Source: a bacterium (GTDB lineage: Bacteria; SAR324; NAC60-12). Taken from it: a stretch of DNA of 64,000 nucleotides. Where the stretch lies: NCBI GenBank assembly GCA_965205865.1, contig CBDBHR010000029.1, positions 384,001-448,000 of the forward strand. The letters run 5' to 3'. The notes under the pieces were generated by a model that saw nothing but the letters and a program-made list of their open reading frames with translations, ran no database searches and was not told where the DNA came from. A program made the translations under genes and the position numbers. Below are positions 1 through 27,094 of the stretch, piece by piece. Every line of letters begins with the position of its first letter. Position 1 is the stretch's first letter.

Positions 1-83
1 GTAGCGAAAGGAGAGGTTTTGCTGCCTCGCAGCATCGCATGATACACGGCCCCAGGATAATGAATTCGTTGTTTGCGTGCCAT
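1..83 (-). CDS. N-terminus of a REP-associated tyrosine (HUH, RAYT/TnpA-Y1) transposase, running off the window edge; possibly a pseudogene
   Basis: Not in the ORF track; minus strand from ATG at 83 reads MARKQRIHYPGAVYHAMLRG, matching the typical RAYT start MAR.PRI..PGA.YHV..RG. Confidence 0.7.
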   Translation of the reverse strand, partial: MARKQRIHYPGAVYHAMLRGSKTSPFA

Positions 84-196
84 CGCTCTTTTTGCAAAAT
101 CTCCACGGCCGCTCCTAATCACCAAAGGTCTCGGGAGGAGACCATGACTCAATCCTATGTCTAGGCCTTTTCTAACAAATTAAATACCAATATGCA

Positions 197-2235
197 GTCA
201 CCGTAAAGAACTGACTTATAGTGGTTTCCAGCCACCTTTCGTCATTCCTCCGGTACAAATCCGGACGTGCGCTGCTAACGCATCCGGCTCCTGCTTCGAG
301 TCAGACGCTCAAACGTTGATTCGGATACGGGTGGGTTGTCCTTACAGAAGGAATGTGTAGTTTGACCAGTACTTTGAAGCGTTCCCAGTTCATCCTCTTT
401 GCTTTGTGACTCCTCCGTCTTAGTGATTTGAACCACGTCCGATGGATTTCCGTGCGAAAAGCATTCAAGGAACTCCGGTTGCCGGGGACTCCATAGTAGT
501 TGTACAGACCGTTTAAAACAGACCTGAGCCATTTTCCTTGTTCATGCGCATTTTCATGACGTTTGCGTTTCGCTTCAAGTTTGATCTCTTTGAGCTTCTT
601 TCGCAACCTTTTGGAAATGGTGAGACGGGTGAGCTTGAATTTTCTATCCTTTATCCGAGTGTCACAGACATGAGTGAATCCTGAAAAGTCGAAACTTTCC
701 GGTTTTCCCAGACCTTGTTTTTCCCGGTTATCGGCGGCAAATCGCCCGAACTCGATGAGGCGTGTTTTCTCTTCATGTAAAGTCAGTCCAAATTGAGAGA
801 GGCGTTCTCTTAGTTGGCGATTAAATTTCTGGCCATCTTCAGAATATTGAAAACCCACGACGAAATCATCCGCATAGCGAATGATGTAAACTTCCCCCCG
901 AGCTTCCCGCCTTCTCCATTGATTGACCCATAGATCTAAAACATAGTGCAGATAGATATTTGAATAGATTGGAGAAACTACCGAACCTTGTGGTGTTCCG
1001 ACCACCGTTTCAGACCACTTCCCCTCTTCGATGACTCCGGCGCGCAACGTTTTCTCTGCTAAACGCAGAATCCTTTTGTCGGAGATTCGATGCTCGATAA
1101 ATTTCAGCATCCAATCATGCTGAATTGTGTCGAAAAATCCTTGAATATCCGCATCTAAGATGTAGCTCACTTTCCGTTGGGTAATGGCCACATACAAAGC
1201 GTCTAAGGCTTGATGTTGGCTTCGTCCGGGTCGGAACCCGTAACTAAACCCAAGGAAATCCTCCTCATAGATCGATTCCAACGTCCAAACAAGGGCTTGT
1301 TGTACGATCTTGTCTTCAAGTGCGGCTATTCCGATTGGCCTTTGACGGCCATCCGGTTTAGGAACCCACACTCGCAGAGAAGGGTGAGGACGATAACGTT
1401 CTTGGTGGATCCCCCATCATAAAAAGGTAGACTAAAAAAGCCGTCCGAGGACACCCTATTTCCAGAGTTCGTTAATTCCGGGCTCCATCGATCCTCCCGT
1501 GCAGATCGTTAATCCGCTCCAGGAGATTTATGCCATACTCATTCCAGGTCTCCTCGTCCACTCCCGCCGCTGAGTTGCGATTGAGATCAAAGTAAGCTCT
1601 CCGCAGTAAGTCAGGGTTGATGTGATGAAAGAGATTGTTGAATTGAAGATGGGGGTTCCTCTTCGCCCTTTGGCGCACCCTGCTTAAACCGCTCTCTGAT
1701 TTTACCGGCCTCTGAGTTCCGAACACAGGAGGGCAAGCAGAATTCCTCTCAGCCAAGTCCCTTTGCTCCACAGGCTCCGTTGATTTCCTTTGCATTGTTA
1801 CTCTCTACAAATGATCTCATTGTTCGCCGCTTCATCGCTACTACGAACTTGTCCGACTTCCTGAAAACGTCGATGTCGGGGTTATTTATTAATTTTCCCG
1901 ATCCGACTACCAATGGAATGTTGACAGTCGTCTTCAGGATCTCCCAGGTTCCGATCAAGAAACTTCCACACATGCACCGGGTCTTCGACTCCGCCAGGCT
2001 CGACCGGGACTCACGCTAACGCCTTCGGTTGATGTTGCCTTCCCCACCAGACTACAAGGTCAGCACCTGAAACTATGATTTCGGAGCTCAATACCGAGCC
2101 TATGTTCTCCCCTGTCAACGCTTAGCGTCTATCCTTGCGAATAACCACTCATGACTCGGGGACTCGGCGGGTCGTTACTGCCTTACCGAGTAAGAGACTT
2201 TCACTCTCTATTTCTTGCCAGCTTTCCTGGCGCAC
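197..2235 (-). mobile_element. Group II intron (IIB, bacterial class D/E-like), full length, RT ORF disrupted
   Basis: 5' end GTGCGCCAGGAAAGC at 2235; domain V GAGCCGGATGCG..CGCACGTCCGGAT; domain VI ending ACGGTGAC at 197; RT ORF inside. Confidence 0.92.
301..1795 (-). pseudogene. ltrA: Group II intron reverse transcriptase/maturase (no endonuclease domain), split by an 82-bp insertion
   Basis: ORFs 1472-1795 and 301-1371 carry RT0-7 motifs (PKPDG.QRPIGI, DADI..FFD, GTPQG, YADD); removing 1408-1489 restores ...HGRIHQERYRPHPSLRVWVPK. Confidence 0.88.
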
Positions 2236-2288
2236 AGCCTGACCCCAGATGGATGAAAAACTCATACGCTTAAGACAATTTCTTAATA

Positions 2289-4690
2289 CATGACTTTCGG
2301 CTAAATAAATATTAACGAAATTTAAGTGTCATTTTTCTTAACTTCTCGATATAATCGCCGTATGCCAGGTGAAATAAAACCTTAAGCCCAAGGCGATTTC
2401 GTTGAGAACTATCAAAAAAGAAAAAGAAAGACTAGCAGAAATTCTTAAACTCTTTAAAAAGGTTGAAGAGTCAGTTCTCTCTGTGAAAGAATATTTTCAA
2501 AACCACCAAACTCCTATCAGTATGAGGCAGTATAGTCGCTTAAAGAAACGCTATACGCAGCAAGGCGTAGCTGGTCTTGCCGATCAGCGTCAGGTCGGTA
2601 ACGCACGAAAAATTAAACCCGACGAGATCAGTTTGGTTCATGGAACCTTGGCCTATAATCGCAACCTAACGTCCCAATCATTACAAGATGAATTGCAAAA
2701 TCAATGGGGAATTACGGTAGGCCAACGTCGTATTGAGCAAATCCGACAAGAGTTTAATTTAACGCGCATTAAGTCACAAACGATTCAGCAGGAAACACTC
2801 CCGTTTGCCGGTATTGAAATTTTTTCAGCCTTAGCGCAATATGTTGGTCTTCTCGAGCATTGGAATATTACGATTCAACAACGTTTACAACAAGTCCAAG
2901 AAACGCCATCGCCAAAAGCCAATAAAGGCGGAGATCATATCCGAGCCCGTCATCGTGATGGCACCTTCTCTGCCCGCTACAATCGTCTGGCCAGCGTTCG
3001 TCATACCAAGTTTGCCTCGATCACCGATAAAGTCAAAGATAAAGATTTCAGTAGATTCACCCTTTCTCAATTAAAAGCCGAGAATTTAAAGCGAAAAAAT
3101 TTAGCCCTCTTGTTTTTACCTTTAGTCACCAATAACGGTGCCATGCGTCATGTGAATACCCCCTTAGGGAATGCTTTACGATACGCCTGTGGGTACAATT
3201 ATAAAAATGCCACCCTGGACAAATACCTCAGAGAACTCAAGTATCTTCAAGTCTCGGCAGACTTGATTAACTGCAACGCTCGGTTTTGGCATCAATTTTG
3301 GCAACAATATGATGCTCCGGATCACAAAGTGGCCTGTTATTATATCGATGGTAATGTTAAACCTTTGTGGTCCTCCAAACGCTGCCGCAAAGGTAAAGTG
3401 ACGATGATGGGCCGCGTGATGGGATGTATCGAACAAGTGGTGATCCATGATGGCCATGGCCGGCCACTTTATCTGCGAACCTTTTCTGGCCATGCGGACT
3501 TACGAGAAAATGCGCTGCGGACGATGGATGAATTGGACATCGTTTTAAATAAAAAACGAGAGTCCCGCGCTAAAGAATCACCTGGCAGCCGCGCATTGAT
3601 CATTGATGGGGCGGGCAATGCTGTTCAAACACTGAGAGCTTTTTCAGAATCGGACTATCATTATATTACCATTCTCGATACCAATCAGATAGTAGATCGC
3701 AAATTTAAGCATCTGAAAGCGCCGCAACGTTATCAGTACGGTGAAGCCTTCCTGATTGATTGCCGCATCGAGTTAATGGACTCAAAAGAATCAGGCTATC
3801 TCTACGAGAGCCGCGCGCTGCGGGTTCAGTGGGATAATGGTAAAGAATGCTGTTTAGTCACCAGTATCCCCTCAAACCTCTTTTATGCTTCAGAAGTGGT
3901 CAAGGCTTATTTTGATCGTTGGCCCTATTGCGAAAAACAATATGCCCTGATGAAGGCCGCGACCTGTTTTAGTCAAGTGGTGGGTTATGGGAAAAAACTT
4001 TTGCCGGATGAAAATACTTTAGAAAAAATCGAAAAACTTCAAACCGACTTGCGAAAACTGCGGCAGGAATTAAAAATTCCGCTTTCGAGAATTACAGTCG
4101 AGGAGAAGAAACTCCAGGATTTATTTGAGAAAGAACGTCAATTTAAAGAAAGAAGCACAATTAACAAAAAAGGCCAACGGGATCAATCTCAACGAAATCA
4201 GGAAAATCTTGAATCTTGTCAGAAGGATATCCGAAGGATTCAACGTCAAATAAAGACGATAGAAGAAGCCTTCAAAAAACAGTTTCAGACTCTACGGCAA
4301 AAGAGCAAAGAATTCGCGCGTATCCAGGGTAAACGGAAAGTTTACCATGTCGATGTTGAACTCGACCAACTAATGACCAGTTTTCGACTAACGCTGGCAA
4401 ATCTTCTCGTTTTTCTGGCAAAGGAAATTTTAGATCATACGCCCATAGAAATGAATACCTTGATCCAGTCCATCTTATTTTTATCAGGAAGAATTGAACA
4501 TCTCCCGGATCGTCGAAAAATTGTCATCAACAAAAATGAAAAAGATCCTCAGTTTATGAATAAATTACAGAAGGGCTTATCGAAGCTTAACGCCCTAAAA
4601 ATCAGGTACTCCAGCGGGGTGGTTTACGAATTTGTCTTGAACTAATGGACATTTAAATTTCGTATATTTTTGATATAGCCGAAAGTCATG
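2289..4690 (+). mobile_element. Intact 2402-bp insertion sequence of uncertain family
   Basis: Perfect 15-bp TIR CATGACTTTCGGCTA / TAGCCGAAAGTCATG; 5-bp TSD TAATA (2284-2288, 4691-4695); single large ORF. Confidence 0.9.
2402..4645 (+). CDS. Large DDE transposase (747 aa) with N-terminal HTH and long coiled-coil insertion
   Basis: YIDGNVK, LIIDGAG and YFDRW..CE motifs; ORF fills the TIR-bounded element. Confidence 0.8.
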   Translation: MRTIKKEKERLAEILKLFKKVEESVLSVKEYFQNHQTPISMRQYSRLKKRYTQQGVAGLADQRQVGNARKIKPDEISLVHGTLAYNRNLTSQSLQDELQNQWGITVGQRRIEQIRQEFNLTRIKSQTIQQETLPFAGIEIFSALAQYVGLLEHWNITIQQRLQQVQETPSPKANKGGDHIRARHRDGTFSARYNRLASVRHTKFASITDKVKDKDFSRFTLSQLKAENLKRKNLALLFLPLVTNNGAMRHVNTPLGNALRYACGYNYKNATLDKYLRELKYLQVSADLINCNARFWHQFWQQYDAPDHKVACYYIDGNVKPLWSSKRCRKGKVTMMGRVMGCIEQVVIHDGHGRPLYLRTFSGHADLRENALRTMDELDIVLNKKRESRAKESPGSRALIIDGAGNAVQTLRAFSESDYHYITILDTNQIVDRKFKHLKAPQRYQYGEAFLIDCRIELMDSKESGYLYESRALRVQWDNGKECCLVTSIPSNLFYASEVVKAYFDRWPYCEKQYALMKAATCFSQVVGYGKKLLPDENTLEKIEKLQTDLRKLRQELKIPLSRITVEEKKLQDLFEKERQFKERSTINKKGQRDQSQRNQENLESCQKDIRRIQRQIKTIEEAFKKQFQTLRQKSKEFARIQGKRKVYHVDVELDQLMTSFRLTLANLLVFLAKEILDHTPIEMNTLIQSILFLSGRIEHLPDRRKIVINKNEKDPQFMNKLQKGLSKLNALKIRYSSGVVYEFVLN

Positions 4691-4705
4691 TAATACCAAT
4701 ATGCA

Positions 4706-5397
4706 GTCACCGTAAAGAACTGACTTATAGTGGTTTCCAGCCACCTTTCGTCATTCCTCCGGTACAGATCCGGACGTGCGCTGCTAACGCATCCGGCTCC
4801 TGCTTCGAGTCAGACGCTCAAACGTTGCCGTTTGGCGCACTCTGCTTAAACCGCTCTCTGATTTTACCGGCTTCTGAGTTCCGAACACAGAAGGGCAAGC
4901 AGAATTCCTCTCAGCCAAGTCCCTTTGCTCCACAGGCTCCGTTGATTTCCTTTGCATTGTTACTCTCTGCAAATGATCTCATTGTTCGCCGCTTCATCGC
5001 TACTACGAACTTGTCCGACTTCCTGAAGAAGTAGATATCGGGGTTATTTATTAATTTTCCCGATCCGACTACCAATAGAATGTTGACAGTCGTCTTCAGG
5101 ATCTCCTAGGTTCCGATCAAGAAACTTCCACACATGCACCGGGTCTTTGACTCCGCCAGGCTCAGCCGAGACTCACGCTAACGCCTTCGGTTGATATTGC
5201 TTTCCCCACCAGACCACAAGGTCAGCGCCTGAAACTATGATTTCGGAGCTCAATACCGAGCCTATGTTCTCCCCTGTCAACGCTTAGCGCCTATCCTTGC
5301 GAATAACCACTCATGACTCGGGGACTCGGCGGGTCGTTACTGCCTTACCGAGTAAGAGACTTTCACTCTCTATTTCTTGCCAGCTTTCCTGGCGCAC
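4706..5397 (-). mobile_element. ORF-less (internally deleted) copy of the group II intron, 692 bp
   Basis: Near-identical to 197-318 plus about 1665-2235; both ends intact; deletion junction near 4827. Confidence 0.9.
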
Positions 5398-5404
5398 AGC
5401 CTGA

Positions 5405-5760
5405 CCCCATTTCGCACTGCCTTTCTTGCCCACTTCAAAAGCAATCTGTTTGGAAAGCGATTTCATTTCCTTGATCAGATGCTCAAAATTCCTCGGGTGG
5501 ATGTTGTTCAAACCCAACTTCTCTAACGAGTTGCCACGGTGGTAGAGTCTTTCCACTAAACGACTGATCAAAGAAGAATCCGTCGGCCAGGCACTATTGG
5601 CCGCCACGACGGTACTATCCAGCTCGAGGACGGCAAAATCATCTAACTCCACCCCAATAATCATCCGAATTTGAACATCAAAAATGAAATGACGGGGCGA
5701 ATTACTGACCGCGTTGAGGTGATCCAAAATCGTACTCATCTCTGGCATTGTCAAACCACG
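5405..5760 (-). pseudogene. IS5/ISNCY-like transposase fragment
   Basis: LDSTVVAANSAWPTDSSL motif; truncated at both ends. Confidence 0.6.
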
Positions 5761-5781
5761 ATTCGCTAAAAAGAGATGTAC

Positions 5782-5924
5782 CTAAATTGAGCGATTCTGA
5801 AAAAGGATCAGATTTTCAAGATGATTTTTTTGCTTGAGAAATGCAATCATTCTGAAATCAGATTTTGATCATCAAATCCATGGATGTTTGAGTGAGAATG
5901 AGCATCAAAATGCTGTTTTCAGAT
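5782..5924. repeat. 143-bp dispersed repeat (probable IS end remnant), inverted copy at 35790-35932
   Basis: Near-identical reverse-complement match between the two loci. Confidence 0.8.
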
Positions 5925-5977
5925 GTGGAAAGTCTTCATTTCTCATGTCATGGACACACTCGTCCCCTTAAACTTTA

Positions 5978-6816
5978 GAATCCGTTTAGTTAAAAAACAC
6001 ACTTGTCTGAGGTAACTTTGATCATGGCAATACGAATCATATTTTCAGCAGTGTTTGTGAGGATTTCAAAATCTTTGGCTAATCTTCTGAATCCCCCGAA
6101 CCAAGCGAATGTGCGCTCCACAATCCAACGTTTTTTCAAGAGCGCCAATTGGCCCTTGATTCCTTTTGCGATGTCGAGTTTCGGTCCCAATACCTTTTCA
6201 ACAAACTCCCGCGAGGCGCCACAATATCCTTGGTCAGTGGAAAAAGCTCTCGAGCTTGGATATTTGCGAGTGGTTTGCTCAAAAACAGCACTCCCTTCCT
6301 TGGTTTCGGATTGGTTCGCCGCATGGACTTTCACATATAAAAGATTGCCCAAAGTATCGACGCTAATATGGCGTTTACGCCCTTTGATTTTTTTCCCCCA
6401 TCAACACCCCGCTCTTTGGAAGCGTATTGGGTTTTCACACTTTGAGAATCGACGATGGCATGACTGGGAAAAGGCTTCTTGCCCTGTTTCACGCGAGTGC
6501 GGGCATTGAGGAAATCCAAAACTTCTTGCCAAATCCCTCTTTGAATCCAGCGGCGATAATGATCATAAACGGTTTGCCAGGGAGGAAAATCATGGGGAAG
6601 CAATCTCCACTGACAACCCGTTTTCACTACATATAAAACCGCATTGACGATGGTATGTTTGCTATCAATACTCCTGGCCCCCCGAGGGTCGGAACATGTA
6701 AAAAAATGTTCAATCTCAGACCATTGTTGATCGCTTAAATTGCTTGAATACATCAATCTCATTTTTAAAAAAATGGAAATTTAGTAAACATGTAATTTTT
6801 TATCCAAACAGCTTCT
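5978..6816 (-). mobile_element. IS5 family element with two-ORF, frameshifted transposase (6331-6762 and 5990-6352)
   Basis: YSSNLSDQQW, KTGCQWRLLPHDFPPWQTVY, AIVDSQSVKT, KRWIVERTFAW motifs; GGGGAAAAAAA slippery site; imperfect terminal IRs. Confidence 0.85.
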
Positions 6817-25073: not shown

Positions 25074-25373
25074 GGGTCAGGCTTCGTTATTTCGTATAAA
25101 GGAGATAAATTGAAAATTCAATAACTAAATAACGAGTCACCGTAAAGAACTGACTTATAGTGGTTTCCAGCCACCTTTCGTCATTCCTCCGGTACAAATC
25201 CGGACATGCGCTGCTAACGCATCCGGCTCCTGCTTCGAGTCAGACGCTCAAACGTTGATTCGGATACGGGTGGGTTGTCCTTACAGAAGGAATGTGTAGT
25301 TTGACCAGTACTTTGAAGCGTTCCCAATTCATCCTCTATTTCTTGCCAGCTTTCCTGGCGCACAGCCTGTCCC
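25074..25373. mobile_element. GGG(T/A)CAG-terminated mini-element whose right IR contains the intron remnant
   Basis: Left IR GGGTCAGGCTTCGTTATTT; right IR AAATAACGA|intron|AGCCTGTCCC. Confidence 0.7.
25136..25363 (-). mobile_element. 228-bp remnant of the group II intron (5' about 29 nt joined to 3' about 200 nt)
   Basis: Matches 197-398 and about 2206-2235; CTCT microhomology at the junction. Confidence 0.88.
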
Positions 25374-25379
25374 GGACTT

Positions 25380-25890
25380 GATCCGGGGGATGCAAAGCCC
25401 GAGTGAGCAACTCGAGCATGGATTTCCCCTGTTTTCTGGTAGTGGAAATGGGCTCGGATACAAAATGCCTGCGTTCCTTCAGCAGTTCGGAAGCCGCCTG
25501 AGATTTTCTGTTTCAATTTGACCATGCGGATATCTCTCTCGGCTTGGTTGTTGTCAAAAGGAACTTGAAAGTCATGCATGAACAACAAGCTTTCCTTTTC
25601 ATAGAGGATCAAACGATCGAGTAAATTTTTTGCTTTCGTCTGTTTGGGGCGTCCTCGTTTCTTTTTTTGAGGTTTTGCAGGATAGAGCTCGAGTGCTTCT
25701 TGGTTGATGTCGTGGTAGCGTTGCCGGAAGCGATCGAGTTGGGTTCGACATCCATTCCCGCTTTGCCGCGTTTGTCATGGATAAAATAAAAAGTCATCTG
25801 TTTGCTCGAGGCCGAGTGAAGCCAATGACGTTGTTTGTTTTCAAACAGGGAAGTTTCATCAAAATGAACGAGCGGGGATTGAATAAAAGC
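25380..25890 (-). pseudogene. IS66 family transposase remnant
   Basis: VHFDETSL..WLH and VPFDNNQAERDIRMVKLKQKISGGFR motifs; deletions and frameshifts. Confidence 0.82.
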
Positions 25891-25911
25891 CTGAATGACC
25901 CCGTTTCCTAG

Positions 25912-25962
25912 TCTGCCCCGATTCATCACATGATACCAAGCAGGGGGATATTCAATTTTGAG
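25912..25962 (-). pseudogene. RAYT/TnpA-Y1 N-terminal fragment
   Basis: LKIEYPPAWYHVMNRGR. Confidence 0.65.
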
Positions 25963-26952: not shown

Positions 26953-27094
26953 GTCGTCCCTCCGGGACTTTGAAGGAGACTGTCTTTTGTTCCCAGCGAT
27001 GAATCGCTGGGGTACTTCCTTTCGTCCCTCCGGGACTTCTTCTGACAGACGAATCTCAAACCTCCGGGACTTCTTCTGACAGACGAATCTCAAA
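26953..27094. repeat. REP-like GTCCCTCCGGGAC hairpins plus a 34-bp tandem duplication
   Basis: Copies at 26953, 27023, 27061; related GTCCC..AGGGAC at 26770 and 31822. Confidence 0.6.

Follow-up and report, generated by a model that had tools for sequence, protein, structure and literature searches.

Three copies of a group II intron lie in the window analysed here, a 64,000-nucleotide (nt) stretch (positions 384,001 to 448,000 of contig CBDBHR010000029.1, assembly GCA_965205865.1) from a SAR324 bacterium of lineage NAC60-12. They very probably belong to an active, endonuclease-less intron family for which the ends of TIRtrons, transposons with a Y1 (HUH) transposase gene between terminal inverted repeats, are the natural homing site. 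The pairing of intron and transposon would be a trait of the intron lineage and not an accident of one genome, because relatives share the conserved end with matching changes in exon-binding site 1 (EBS1). All three copies lie on the minus strand at one target, as an earlier note on this DNA had proposed, with 5′ exons GGGGTCAGGCT (2246-2236), GGGGTCAGGCT (5408-5398) and GGGACAGGCT (25373-25364) and a 3′ exon that starts with T in each case. Copies 1 and 2 comprise the following features.

197..2235, minus strand: intron copy 1, 2039 nt, full length, with its reverse transcriptase (RT) gene broken by an 82-nt insert
1408..1489, no strand: the 82-nt insert in the RT gene of copy 1, an unrelated short dispersed repeat
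2048..2053, minus strand: EBS1 of copy 1, AGUCUG (GGUCUG in most copies), with partner CAGGC(U/C)
2236..2246, minus strand: 5′ exon of copy 1, GGGGTCAGGCT, the outer 11 bases of the terminal repeat, containing intron-binding site 1 (IBS1)
184..196, minus strand: 3′ exon of copy 1, the inner terminal inverted repeat, TGCATATTGGTAT; the same 13 bases flank copy 2
4706..5397, minus strand: intron copy 2, the 692-nt form without the open reading frame (ORF), intron nt 572-1835 being deleted
5398..5408, minus strand: 5′ exon of copy 2, GGGGTCAGGCT
4693..4705, minus strand: 3′ exon of copy 2, the inner part of a second, solo terminal repeat

Both copies interrupt the same repeat, again as proposed, parting ATACCAATATGCA from AGCCTGACCCCA (184-196/2236-2247 and 4693-4705/5398-5409). 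On the minus strand copy 1 begins with GTGCGCC at 2235 and ends with ...TTACGGTGAC at 197. It is 98-99% identical to intact 1957-nt copies elsewhere in the genome (blastn) and 82 nt longer than these, with its RT ORF in fragments at 301-1371 and 1472-1795; a ~54-nt core of the insert is a dispersed repeat with ~45 further genome sites (blastn). Twenty public runs contain part of window 1-5700, and the contigs of two RNA-library and two other runs were compared with window 1-2700; such contigs cannot show transcription. The insert-free form of the intron is present among them, with X3 and X9 joining 1407 to 1490, and contigs from other intron copies depart from the window sequence at 2244-2247. 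A 317-to-1665 joint was seen in all four runs compared, and the deletion break-points of copy 2 are common to 16 complete copies in the genome.

A blastn search of the genome (G000; 30 contigs, 4.74 Mb) with the intron gave 50 chained loci, of which one is spurious (69 nt), leaving about 49 copies. Four are intact, each 1957 nt with an ORF of at least 470 codons, and 16 are complete but ORF-less, 689-703 nt in length, with the one common deletion. Three more complete ORF-less copies carry a ~0.9-kb insert at intron nt 396-401, and the remaining copies are truncated. The ~0.9-kb insert is found in six ORF-less copies altogether, at C28:326218-327823, C29:627016-628615 and C30:1205902-1207500 (contig:position) and in three truncated copies. 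GC skew and gene orientation favour one strand on C30, the preference changing over near 600 kb, and 10 of 12 intron loci there are on the other strand; on C28 all nine loci are on the plus strand, and the bias on C29 is the reverse of that on C30, the skew being weak throughout (±0.01-0.03).

The flanks of the other copies, which the earlier note had suggested tabulating, repeat the pattern of the window. Almost all of the 41 5′ junctions have GGGGTCAGGC(T/C), or a sequence close to it, as their 5′ exon, with 28 junctions after the exact 10-mer GGGTCAGGC[TC] and most others after one-base variants; a head-to-tail tandem copy is among the exceptions. GGGGTCAGGC(T/C) makes up the outermost 11 bases of the Y1 elements' terminal inverted repeats. 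Counted from the outer GGGG, every insertion falls exactly 11 bases into the repeat and is oriented into the element, at either end and in full elements as well as in miniature hairpin derivatives. On the other side of the intron, 29 of 36 3′ junctions fall in four repeat families, sorted by eye: 15 of TTTGATTA type, six of TG(C/A)AAGTTTG type, six of TGCATATTGG type (two loose) and two of TCGTTA type. The other seven 3′ flanks are three of CCTTTGG/CTTTTG type, one IS66, the tandem copy and two singletons. Families f/a, b/c and e bound Y1 genes or remnants, and family d was assigned by its GGGGTCAGGCT terminus. This junction pattern is far beyond chance.

Occupied and empty sites were also counted. 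Exact GGGTCAGGC[TC] sites number 164 against 14.7 expected from base composition: 28 are followed by the intron, 126 are followed by T and empty, nearly all of them in repeat families, and the remaining 10 include ~6 unique sites in ordinary DNA, all empty and all with C or G at +1. Occupancy of repeat ends is thus roughly 1 in 6. Outside the repeat, A is present at position -16 at 18 of 28 occupied and 30 of 126 empty sites (Fisher p = 7e-5), a difference that holds in both -1 variants. As a set, the repeat ends (154 core sites) have (G/A)AAA-N before the GGGG, on its outer side, a sign that the TIRtrons themselves may prefer certain sites for insertion. An IS66-family transposase gene has a look-alike site, GGGACAGGCT followed by T, at its 3′ end; this site is cleanly occupied once (C28:358767) and empty seven times.

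The intron is assigned to group II by its ribozyme, its boundaries and its protein. The Rfam model group-II-D1D4-6 (RF02005; gathering score 49) matches copy 1 at 1979-2201 with 164.1 bits, copy 2 at 5141-5363 with 170.2 bits and L001, an intact genomic copy, at nt 35-257 with 167.8 bits, among 30 matches in the genome. The domain V/VI model RF00029 matches L001 below its gathering score of 40 (28.8 bits, E 0.0045), full length, correctly placed and ending on the terminal AC; in several relatives it reaches 40-54 bits, above the gathering score. GTGCG is present at nearly all of the 41 5′ junctions and ...GGTGAC at 35 of 36 3′ ends, which fits the group II consensus of 5′ GUGYG and 3′ AY. The intron-encoded protein (IEP) of the intact copies has 470 aa and matches TIGR04416 with 339.8 bits (cut-off 300) and RVT_1 with 126 bits; its best matches among solved structures are group II RT/maturases, with 7uim at 5e-43. 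RVT_1 is its sole Pfam domain, with no HNH endonuclease (En) domain found, and the protein ends ...HPYPNQRLSV soon after the maturase region; the intron is therefore endonuclease-less.

The target is read at least in part by base pairing. In the Rfam structure the EBS1 hairpin is GAC-CUU-GU[GGUCUG]G-UGGG-GAAGGC, with AGTCTG (2053-2048) as the terminal loop in copy 1, exactly the loop for which pairing with CAGGCU had been predicted. Across the genome copies the loop is mostly GGUCUG, which pairs with both CAGGCC and CAGGCU, and AGUCUG in about ten. Covariation was examined in 85 rows from 82 related loci, with 5′ ends placed by an nhmmer profile and the loop readable in 67; at least five of six pairs form between loop and exon in 55 of the 67 rows and six Watson-Crick pairs in 39. 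Among relatives, EBS1 UGUCUG is found with 5′ exon end CAGGCA, CGCCUG with CAGGCG, UGGGUG with CACCCA, AGAGCG with CGCUCU, UGAGCG with CGCUCA and UUAACG with CGUUAA. Because the loop and the final six bases of the exon change together among relatives, we regard the assignment of EBS1, as judged by sequence comparison, as settled. The companion prediction of an EBS2, GCUCC pairing with GGGGU, was not supported: GCUCC forms one side of the helix GCUCCG/CGGAGU of the Rfam model, and relatives keep this helix whatever their target.

The host elements occur as full units of 1.0-1.2 kb, with a 328-330-aa gene between inverted GGGGTCAGGCY ends. The following have GGGGTCAG... at both ends.

C29:722037-723082: full unit
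C29:736586-737631: full unit
C26:138255-139458: full unit

The transposase (P0003) matches Y1_Tnp with 46.8 bits (cut-off 23) and has an HVH motif, NHVHLVV, and a tyrosine region, RYVHLNP. Its C terminus matches Bac_DnaA_C over residues 223-287 (34.9 bits, cut-off 31.5), and against solved structures it matches only DnaA domain IV (chain 3pvp, 7e-05). Of 47 Y1 loci found by tblastn, 11 are near full length. Five near-identical c-type copies with different flanks lie at C29:722-746 kb, and since near-identical copies occupy different sites, the host elements are multi-copy and recently mobile. A hotspot at C29:717000-746000 holds these five c-type elements and four intron copies within ~30 kb. 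Deletion derivatives with the same ends measure 0.72 kb, 0.37 kb and 80 bp, and the 80-bp miniature (e.g. C27:50737-50816) folds as a REPIN-like hairpin with a 19-bp terminal stem. Right after GGGGTCAGGCY each family has its own short direct repeats, TTGATTA..TGATTA, GCAAGTTTGCAA, GAAAGTTTGAAA and CGTTATTTCGTTA, which could be candidate binding sites of the DnaA_C-like domain.

According to the earlier note, GGGG(A/T)CAG-type ends are known for a subclass of Y1 elements, and the literature bears this out. Di Nocera et al. 2013 (PMC3733652) describe genes resembling REP-associated tyrosine transposases (RAYTs; REP, repetitive extragenic palindrome) with terminal inverted repeats as TIRYTs and the elements as TIRtrons, with motif GGGGWSAS, and Quentin et al. 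2018 (PMC6006769) place most TIRYTs in subclass 2.1, with Bac_DnaA_C or helix-turn-helix (HTH) C termini. GGGGTCAG matches GGGGWSAS, and from these sequence features the host elements are assigned to the TIRYT/TIRtron class, with which they share the RAYT-like Y1 gene, the Bac_DnaA_C-like C terminus, GGGGWSAS repeats, repeat families and dimers; compared with the published TIRtrons they are clearly multi-copy and recently mobile. An assignment to classical RAYT/REP systems was rejected: the NCBIfam REP-associated tyrosine transposase model NF047646 scores 65.6 bits, below its cut-off of 80, the elements are multi-copy, and the ends are terminal inverted repeats, not GTAG-type palindromes. Copy 1 adjoins one such element.

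1..83, minus strand: 5′ part of a TIRYT-type Y1 pseudogene, ATG at 83-81, protein starting MARKQRIHYPGAVYH

The end of copy 1 lies 113 nt from this ATG, so that the ~110 bp given in the earlier note for its distance upstream of a RAYT start was accurate, while the gene itself is a TIRYT-class pseudogene and not a RAYT. Against an intact copy (tblastn) residues 1-21 and 77-326 match, residues 22-76 with the HUH motif are deleted, and stop codons are present. The element extends beyond the window to ~C29:383287, and its far repeat, AATACAAATATGCAAGCCTGACCCC near C29:383290, is empty.

The third copy is a remnant with a composite setting.

25136..25363, minus strand: intron copy 3, a 228-nt remnant with intron nt 1-36 fused to nt 1756-1957
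25120..25135, minus strand: 3′ exon of copy 3, TCGTTATTTAGTTATT, the inner part of an inverted partner repeat
25074..25092, plus strand: empty target near copy 3, d-type terminal repeat GGGTCAGGCTTCGTTATTT
25364..25774, minus strand: 3′ end of an IS66-family transposase gene (Pfam DDE_Tnp_IS66, 53.7 bits), with the look-alike 5′ exon GGGACAGGCT at 25373-25364

The empty arm at 25074-25092 is inverted relative to TCGTTATTTAG, which adjoins copy 3, in agreement with the idea that this copy sits in one arm of a mini-element. The 5′ flank does not fit that idea: it is identical over 40 nt to the flank of the intron copy at C28:358767, and because the 5′ flank is IS66 and the 3′ flank a d-type repeat, copy 3 is a chimera and not a simple insertion into the second arm. 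Judged from the flanks, recombination between two copies of the intron is the simplest explanation. A TIRYT-like N-terminal remnant (..YPPAWYHVMNRG..) lies near copy 3, at ~25900-25960 on the minus strand.

Relatives of the intron were collected by an IEP scan of one genome per species, which gave 37 loci with 46-86% identity; RF02005 is present in 28 of the 35 relatives scanned with Rfam. In an IEP tree of 25 rows, with frameshifted copies left out and two partial rows included, the present intron falls in a clade of 12 rows (Shimodaira-Hasegawa-like approximate likelihood-ratio support 97), all of which are at GG(G)(G)WCA-type exons or beside Y1 genes. The clade includes L026, at the same GGGGTCAGGCT mini-element, L005 and L033, labelled Deltaproteobacteria, and gammaproteobacteria, namely Psychrobium, Candidatus Thiodiazotropha, Endozoicomonas, a Spongiibacteraceae metagenome-assembled genome (MAG) and one other MAG. 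The 5′ exons of the clade comprise (A-rich)GGGACAGGCA, GGACACCCA, GGGTACACCCG, GGGGACACCTT, GGGGACACACA and GGACAGCCA. In four relatives a Y1 gene follows the intron, the overall span of the start distances being given as 47-140 nt.

L033: Y1 gene starting 47 nt after the intron (Y1_Tnp 32.6 bits)
L030: Y1-type gene 60 nt after the intron (NCBIfam partial match 37.3 bits; BLASTP to the local protein 2e-7, over the HUH and YxxLNP regions)
L035 and L037: Y1-type genes 83-97 nt after the intron (Y1_Tnp 19.8 bits, below cut-off)

Short elements with an inverted target copy 35-60 nt downstream are found at L026, L006 and the Planctomycete locus L009. A genome of the same genus has three copies at GGGGGTCTGGCT with EBS1 AGCCUG, their 3′ flanks resembling the local c-type 5′ region by eye, and one of the same family has copies at GGACAGCCA with EBS1 UGGCUG. 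From metagenomes the best 80 contigs were sampled, most of them barely longer than the intron; in one, L073, a Y1 gene 53% identical to that of L030 lies antisense ~0.26 kb downstream. The check proposed in the earlier note, whether RT homologues are flanked by RAYT repeats, thus gave Y1 genes or inverted GGGGWCA mini-elements as their neighbours in other genomes. At L032 (Thiodiazotropha) the intron lies between two inverted IS1595-family transposase genes (2262-3215 and 5569-6522), and to judge from this setting its 5′ exon GGGGACACACA may belong to an IS1595-family end.

Several results weigh against a specialised intron family, and some of them favour incidental targeting, in which the intron homes to a sequence of ~11 bases through EBS1 and protein contacts, and this sequence happens to have been amplified here, with no specialisation on Y1 elements. 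Almost every match to the recognised sequence in this genome is a transposon end: because ~154 of the 164 exact sites are repeat ends, any intron with the same EBS1 would give the same picture. The ~6 non-repeat controls cannot show selectivity beyond base pairing, because they are few and differ at +1. The look-alike site in the IS66 gene is used as well. About half of the sampled D1D4-6 relatives are at quite different, unrelated targets, and Pfam found no Y1 domain in 78 neighbouring ORFs of non-clade relatives, the neighbours being housekeeping genes, IS66, IS1595, phage integrase and others. The Planctomycete intron, at GGGGGACAGGCG, lies outside the clade on the IEP tree, so the trait is older, or convergent, or the tree is wrong there. 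The Y1 calls in gammaproteobacteria are weak, with Pfam below cut-off or silent, and a sequence search with a gammaproteobacterial Y1-like ORF against solved structures gave no match; at L005 a Y1 start near the intron was placed by eye, against a reference with stop codons. No consistent EBS2 against GGGGU or the A-run was found in the aligned domain I of 22 relatives. The internal loop at the usual IIB place for EBS2 (AAAUCAUAGUU) has no complementarity to GGGGU, and plausible EBS2 pairings are confined to some non-clade relatives, L013 and L015; for classes E and F, splicing in vitro is reported not to require the EBS2 pairing (PMC3753933). Neither mobility nor splicing was observed: the contigs of the four runs contain no 197/2236 joint, which would represent ligated exons or an empty allele, and show internal deletion forms and loose ends at the intron boundaries, nothing else.

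Against incidental targeting, relatives retain the GG(G)(G)WCA context even though their EBS1/IBS1 pairs differ (GGC-A, GGC-G, CCC-A, GCUCU), and several lie less than 150 nt from the start of a Y1 gene. Within the final 14 bases of the exon, a loose form of the motif is present in 16 of 31 genome rows and 10 of 54 metagenome rows; among random 14-mers drawn from these loci the figure is 6.7%. Copies that come from a single genome are not independent of one another, a further point on the negative side, and by genome the motif is found in 7 of about 21 (counted from record titles). On balance we consider incidental targeting unlikely.

The distribution of copies among host families bears on whether the intron inserts by itself. 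In a second reading most copies were made by the Y1 transposase copying miniatures or TIRtrons that were already occupied. Many occupied sites are indeed 80-bp miniatures of one family (15 of 36 3′ flanks), and occupied elements cluster locally at C28:322-359 kb and C29:717-734 kb. Such hitch-hiking is nevertheless quite improbable, as the intron moves the outer 11 bases 0.7-2 kb away from the rest of the repeat, and introns of 96-99% identity are found in four repeat families with unrelated subterminal sequence, in the IS66 gene and at non-repeat sites. In addition, a tree of the 29 of 50 intron loci that retain both ends shows no clustering by host family, although it is poorly resolved, with one of 26 inner branches well supported; host-family changes number five for five rows of b/c, four for four of e and two for two of d, and 500 of 500 shuffles were as low. 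These data speak for introns inserted from a shared pool more than for introns copied along with their host element, with some co-amplification possible.

A third reading is a composite symbiosis in the manner of IStrons, in which the intron would be a transposon module, controlling for example Y1 transcription or splicing, and the two would move and be selected together. It draws on the c-type elements, three of whose six near-intact copies have the intron in the upstream repeat, co-oriented with the Y1 gene, and on the same arrangement in L033, L030 and L037. Most elements of every family are intron-free, as the 126 empty and 28 occupied core sites indicate, the far end is also hit (L073 and miniature elements), and the window's own host gene is a pseudogene; we therefore consider a composite highly improbable. 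Homing into the ends of TIRtrons by an independent intron remains the preferred interpretation, and it agrees with the earlier note's reading of an intron that homes into the repeats of a self-amplifying HUH/Y1 element. Each of the findings that the note had named as telling against that reading was looked for, and the flanks proved to be shared, EBS1 to map to the predicted loop and the repeats to accompany Y1 genes.

A course of events can be proposed for this homing. The intron RNA would read CAGGC(U/C) of the repeat through the EBS1 loop, a step that we count as established by the covariation. The 470-aa RT/maturase of the four intact copies probably mobilises the 692-nt ORF-less form in trans, and copies would spread by retrohoming into the ~150 repeat ends scattered by transposon amplification. 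With each insertion the subterminal repeats are cut off from the outer 11 bases, and the transposon end is probably disabled, which would make the intron a parasite of a parasite.

Two further features of the window lie outside the intron and its targets.

2289..4690, plus strand: unrelated insertion sequence (IS) whose inverted ends (CATGACTTTCGGCTA) are 15 bp long, with a TA/TA duplication and, at 2402-4645, a gene for a 747-aa transposase
26992-27037: Acido-Lenti-1 RNA match (RF01687, 46.6 bits); the same family is found in the relative locus L007

The IS splits the solo end of the second e-type Y1 element, the host of copy 2; its 747-aa ORF is unusually long, with weak N-terminal IS630/HTH_32 matches.

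Several known systems resemble parts of this one. RmInt1 of Sinorhizobium meliloti is likewise an endonuclease-less group II intron at high copy number in one genome, and its natural homing site is in the insertion sequence ISRm2011-2, inside the DDE transposase gene. In contrast to a site in one IS gene, the intron here targets the terminal inverted repeat that Y1/HUH elements share with their miniatures, and relatives in other groups behave alike; the site is therefore present ~150 times and in both orientations. The introns of class IIC at terminators and at attC sites, the latter being the analogy drawn in the earlier note, are also endonuclease-less and use a repeated structural motif of another genetic system, attC sites being imperfect inverted repeats read by an integrase (PMC4424553). 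The likeness is one of lifestyle and does not extend to the ribozyme. IIC introns have an EBS1 of 3-4 bp and a stem-loop, without EBS2 (PMC7923331), whereas the best Rfam family here is D1D4-6 in every copy and relative, EBS1 is 6 bp by covariation, and insertion is inside one repeat arm and not after a hairpin; a IIC assignment was accordingly rejected.

In Thermosynechococcus elongatus, TeI3/TeI4 (Mohr et al. 2010, PMC2882425) form introns nested in introns, with EBS variants matching new sites. They share with the present intron proliferation within a genome and a single ORF deletion that gave rise to many ORF-less copies, there mobilised in trans; TeI3/TeI4 spread to several unrelated sites, while multiplication here is on a transposon-amplified site. 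IStrons (PMC4227781), in which a group I intron is combined with an IS200/IS605-type element, also tie an intron to a Y1-transposase element, as a single composite moved by the transposase whose intron neutralises insertions; here an independent retroelement invades a transposon end. A group II intron of Pseudomonas putida was reported at REPs in two of nine copies (22%) by Tobes and Pareja 2006 (PMC1525189), so that dispersed Y1-related repeats are landing sites for other mobile DNA there too. That association is weak, in contrast to the present 29 of 36 3′ flanks that are repeat ends, with a junction fixed to the base.

No printed report of a pairing between a group II intron and a TIRtron was found in the literature searched, subscription journals and supplements being outside the search. 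Neither of the two TIRtron papers connects the elements with introns: "intron" occurs 0 times in PMC3733652 and as general background only in PMC6006769. A 2015 review (PMC4424553) lists three bacterial intron target specificities, namely homing sites, terminators and attC, and one further printed hint is a comment that introns, attC sites and an IS200/605 element cluster together. The homing of group II introns into mobile DNA is known behaviour; what is unusual is the use of the conserved end of a Y1 transposon as the site, across bacterial groups.

The TIRtron end would thus be a fourth kind of recurrent landing place for group II introns. TIRtrons have barely been studied, and intron insertion at one fixed position of GGGGWSAS is an independent marker of the important end bases. 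The system is a natural case of nested selfish DNA, a transposon with its miniatures and an intron with its ORF-less derivatives, and the 6-bp EBS1, which changes in step with the repeat variants from genome to genome, offers a clean series of natural retargeting events. It also poses the question of what reads the GGGGW block and the A-run, with no apparent EBS2. Tentatively, the clade may be a multi-phylum group of En-less introns that has co-evolved with TIRtrons and reads GGGGW and the A-run by means other than EBS2; one possibility is that a single-stranded or hairpin form of the end is read during Y1 transposition or at the replication fork. If this is true, the mechanism of retrohoming would be tied to that of HUH transposition, and TIRtrons would have in the intron a natural brake on their spread.

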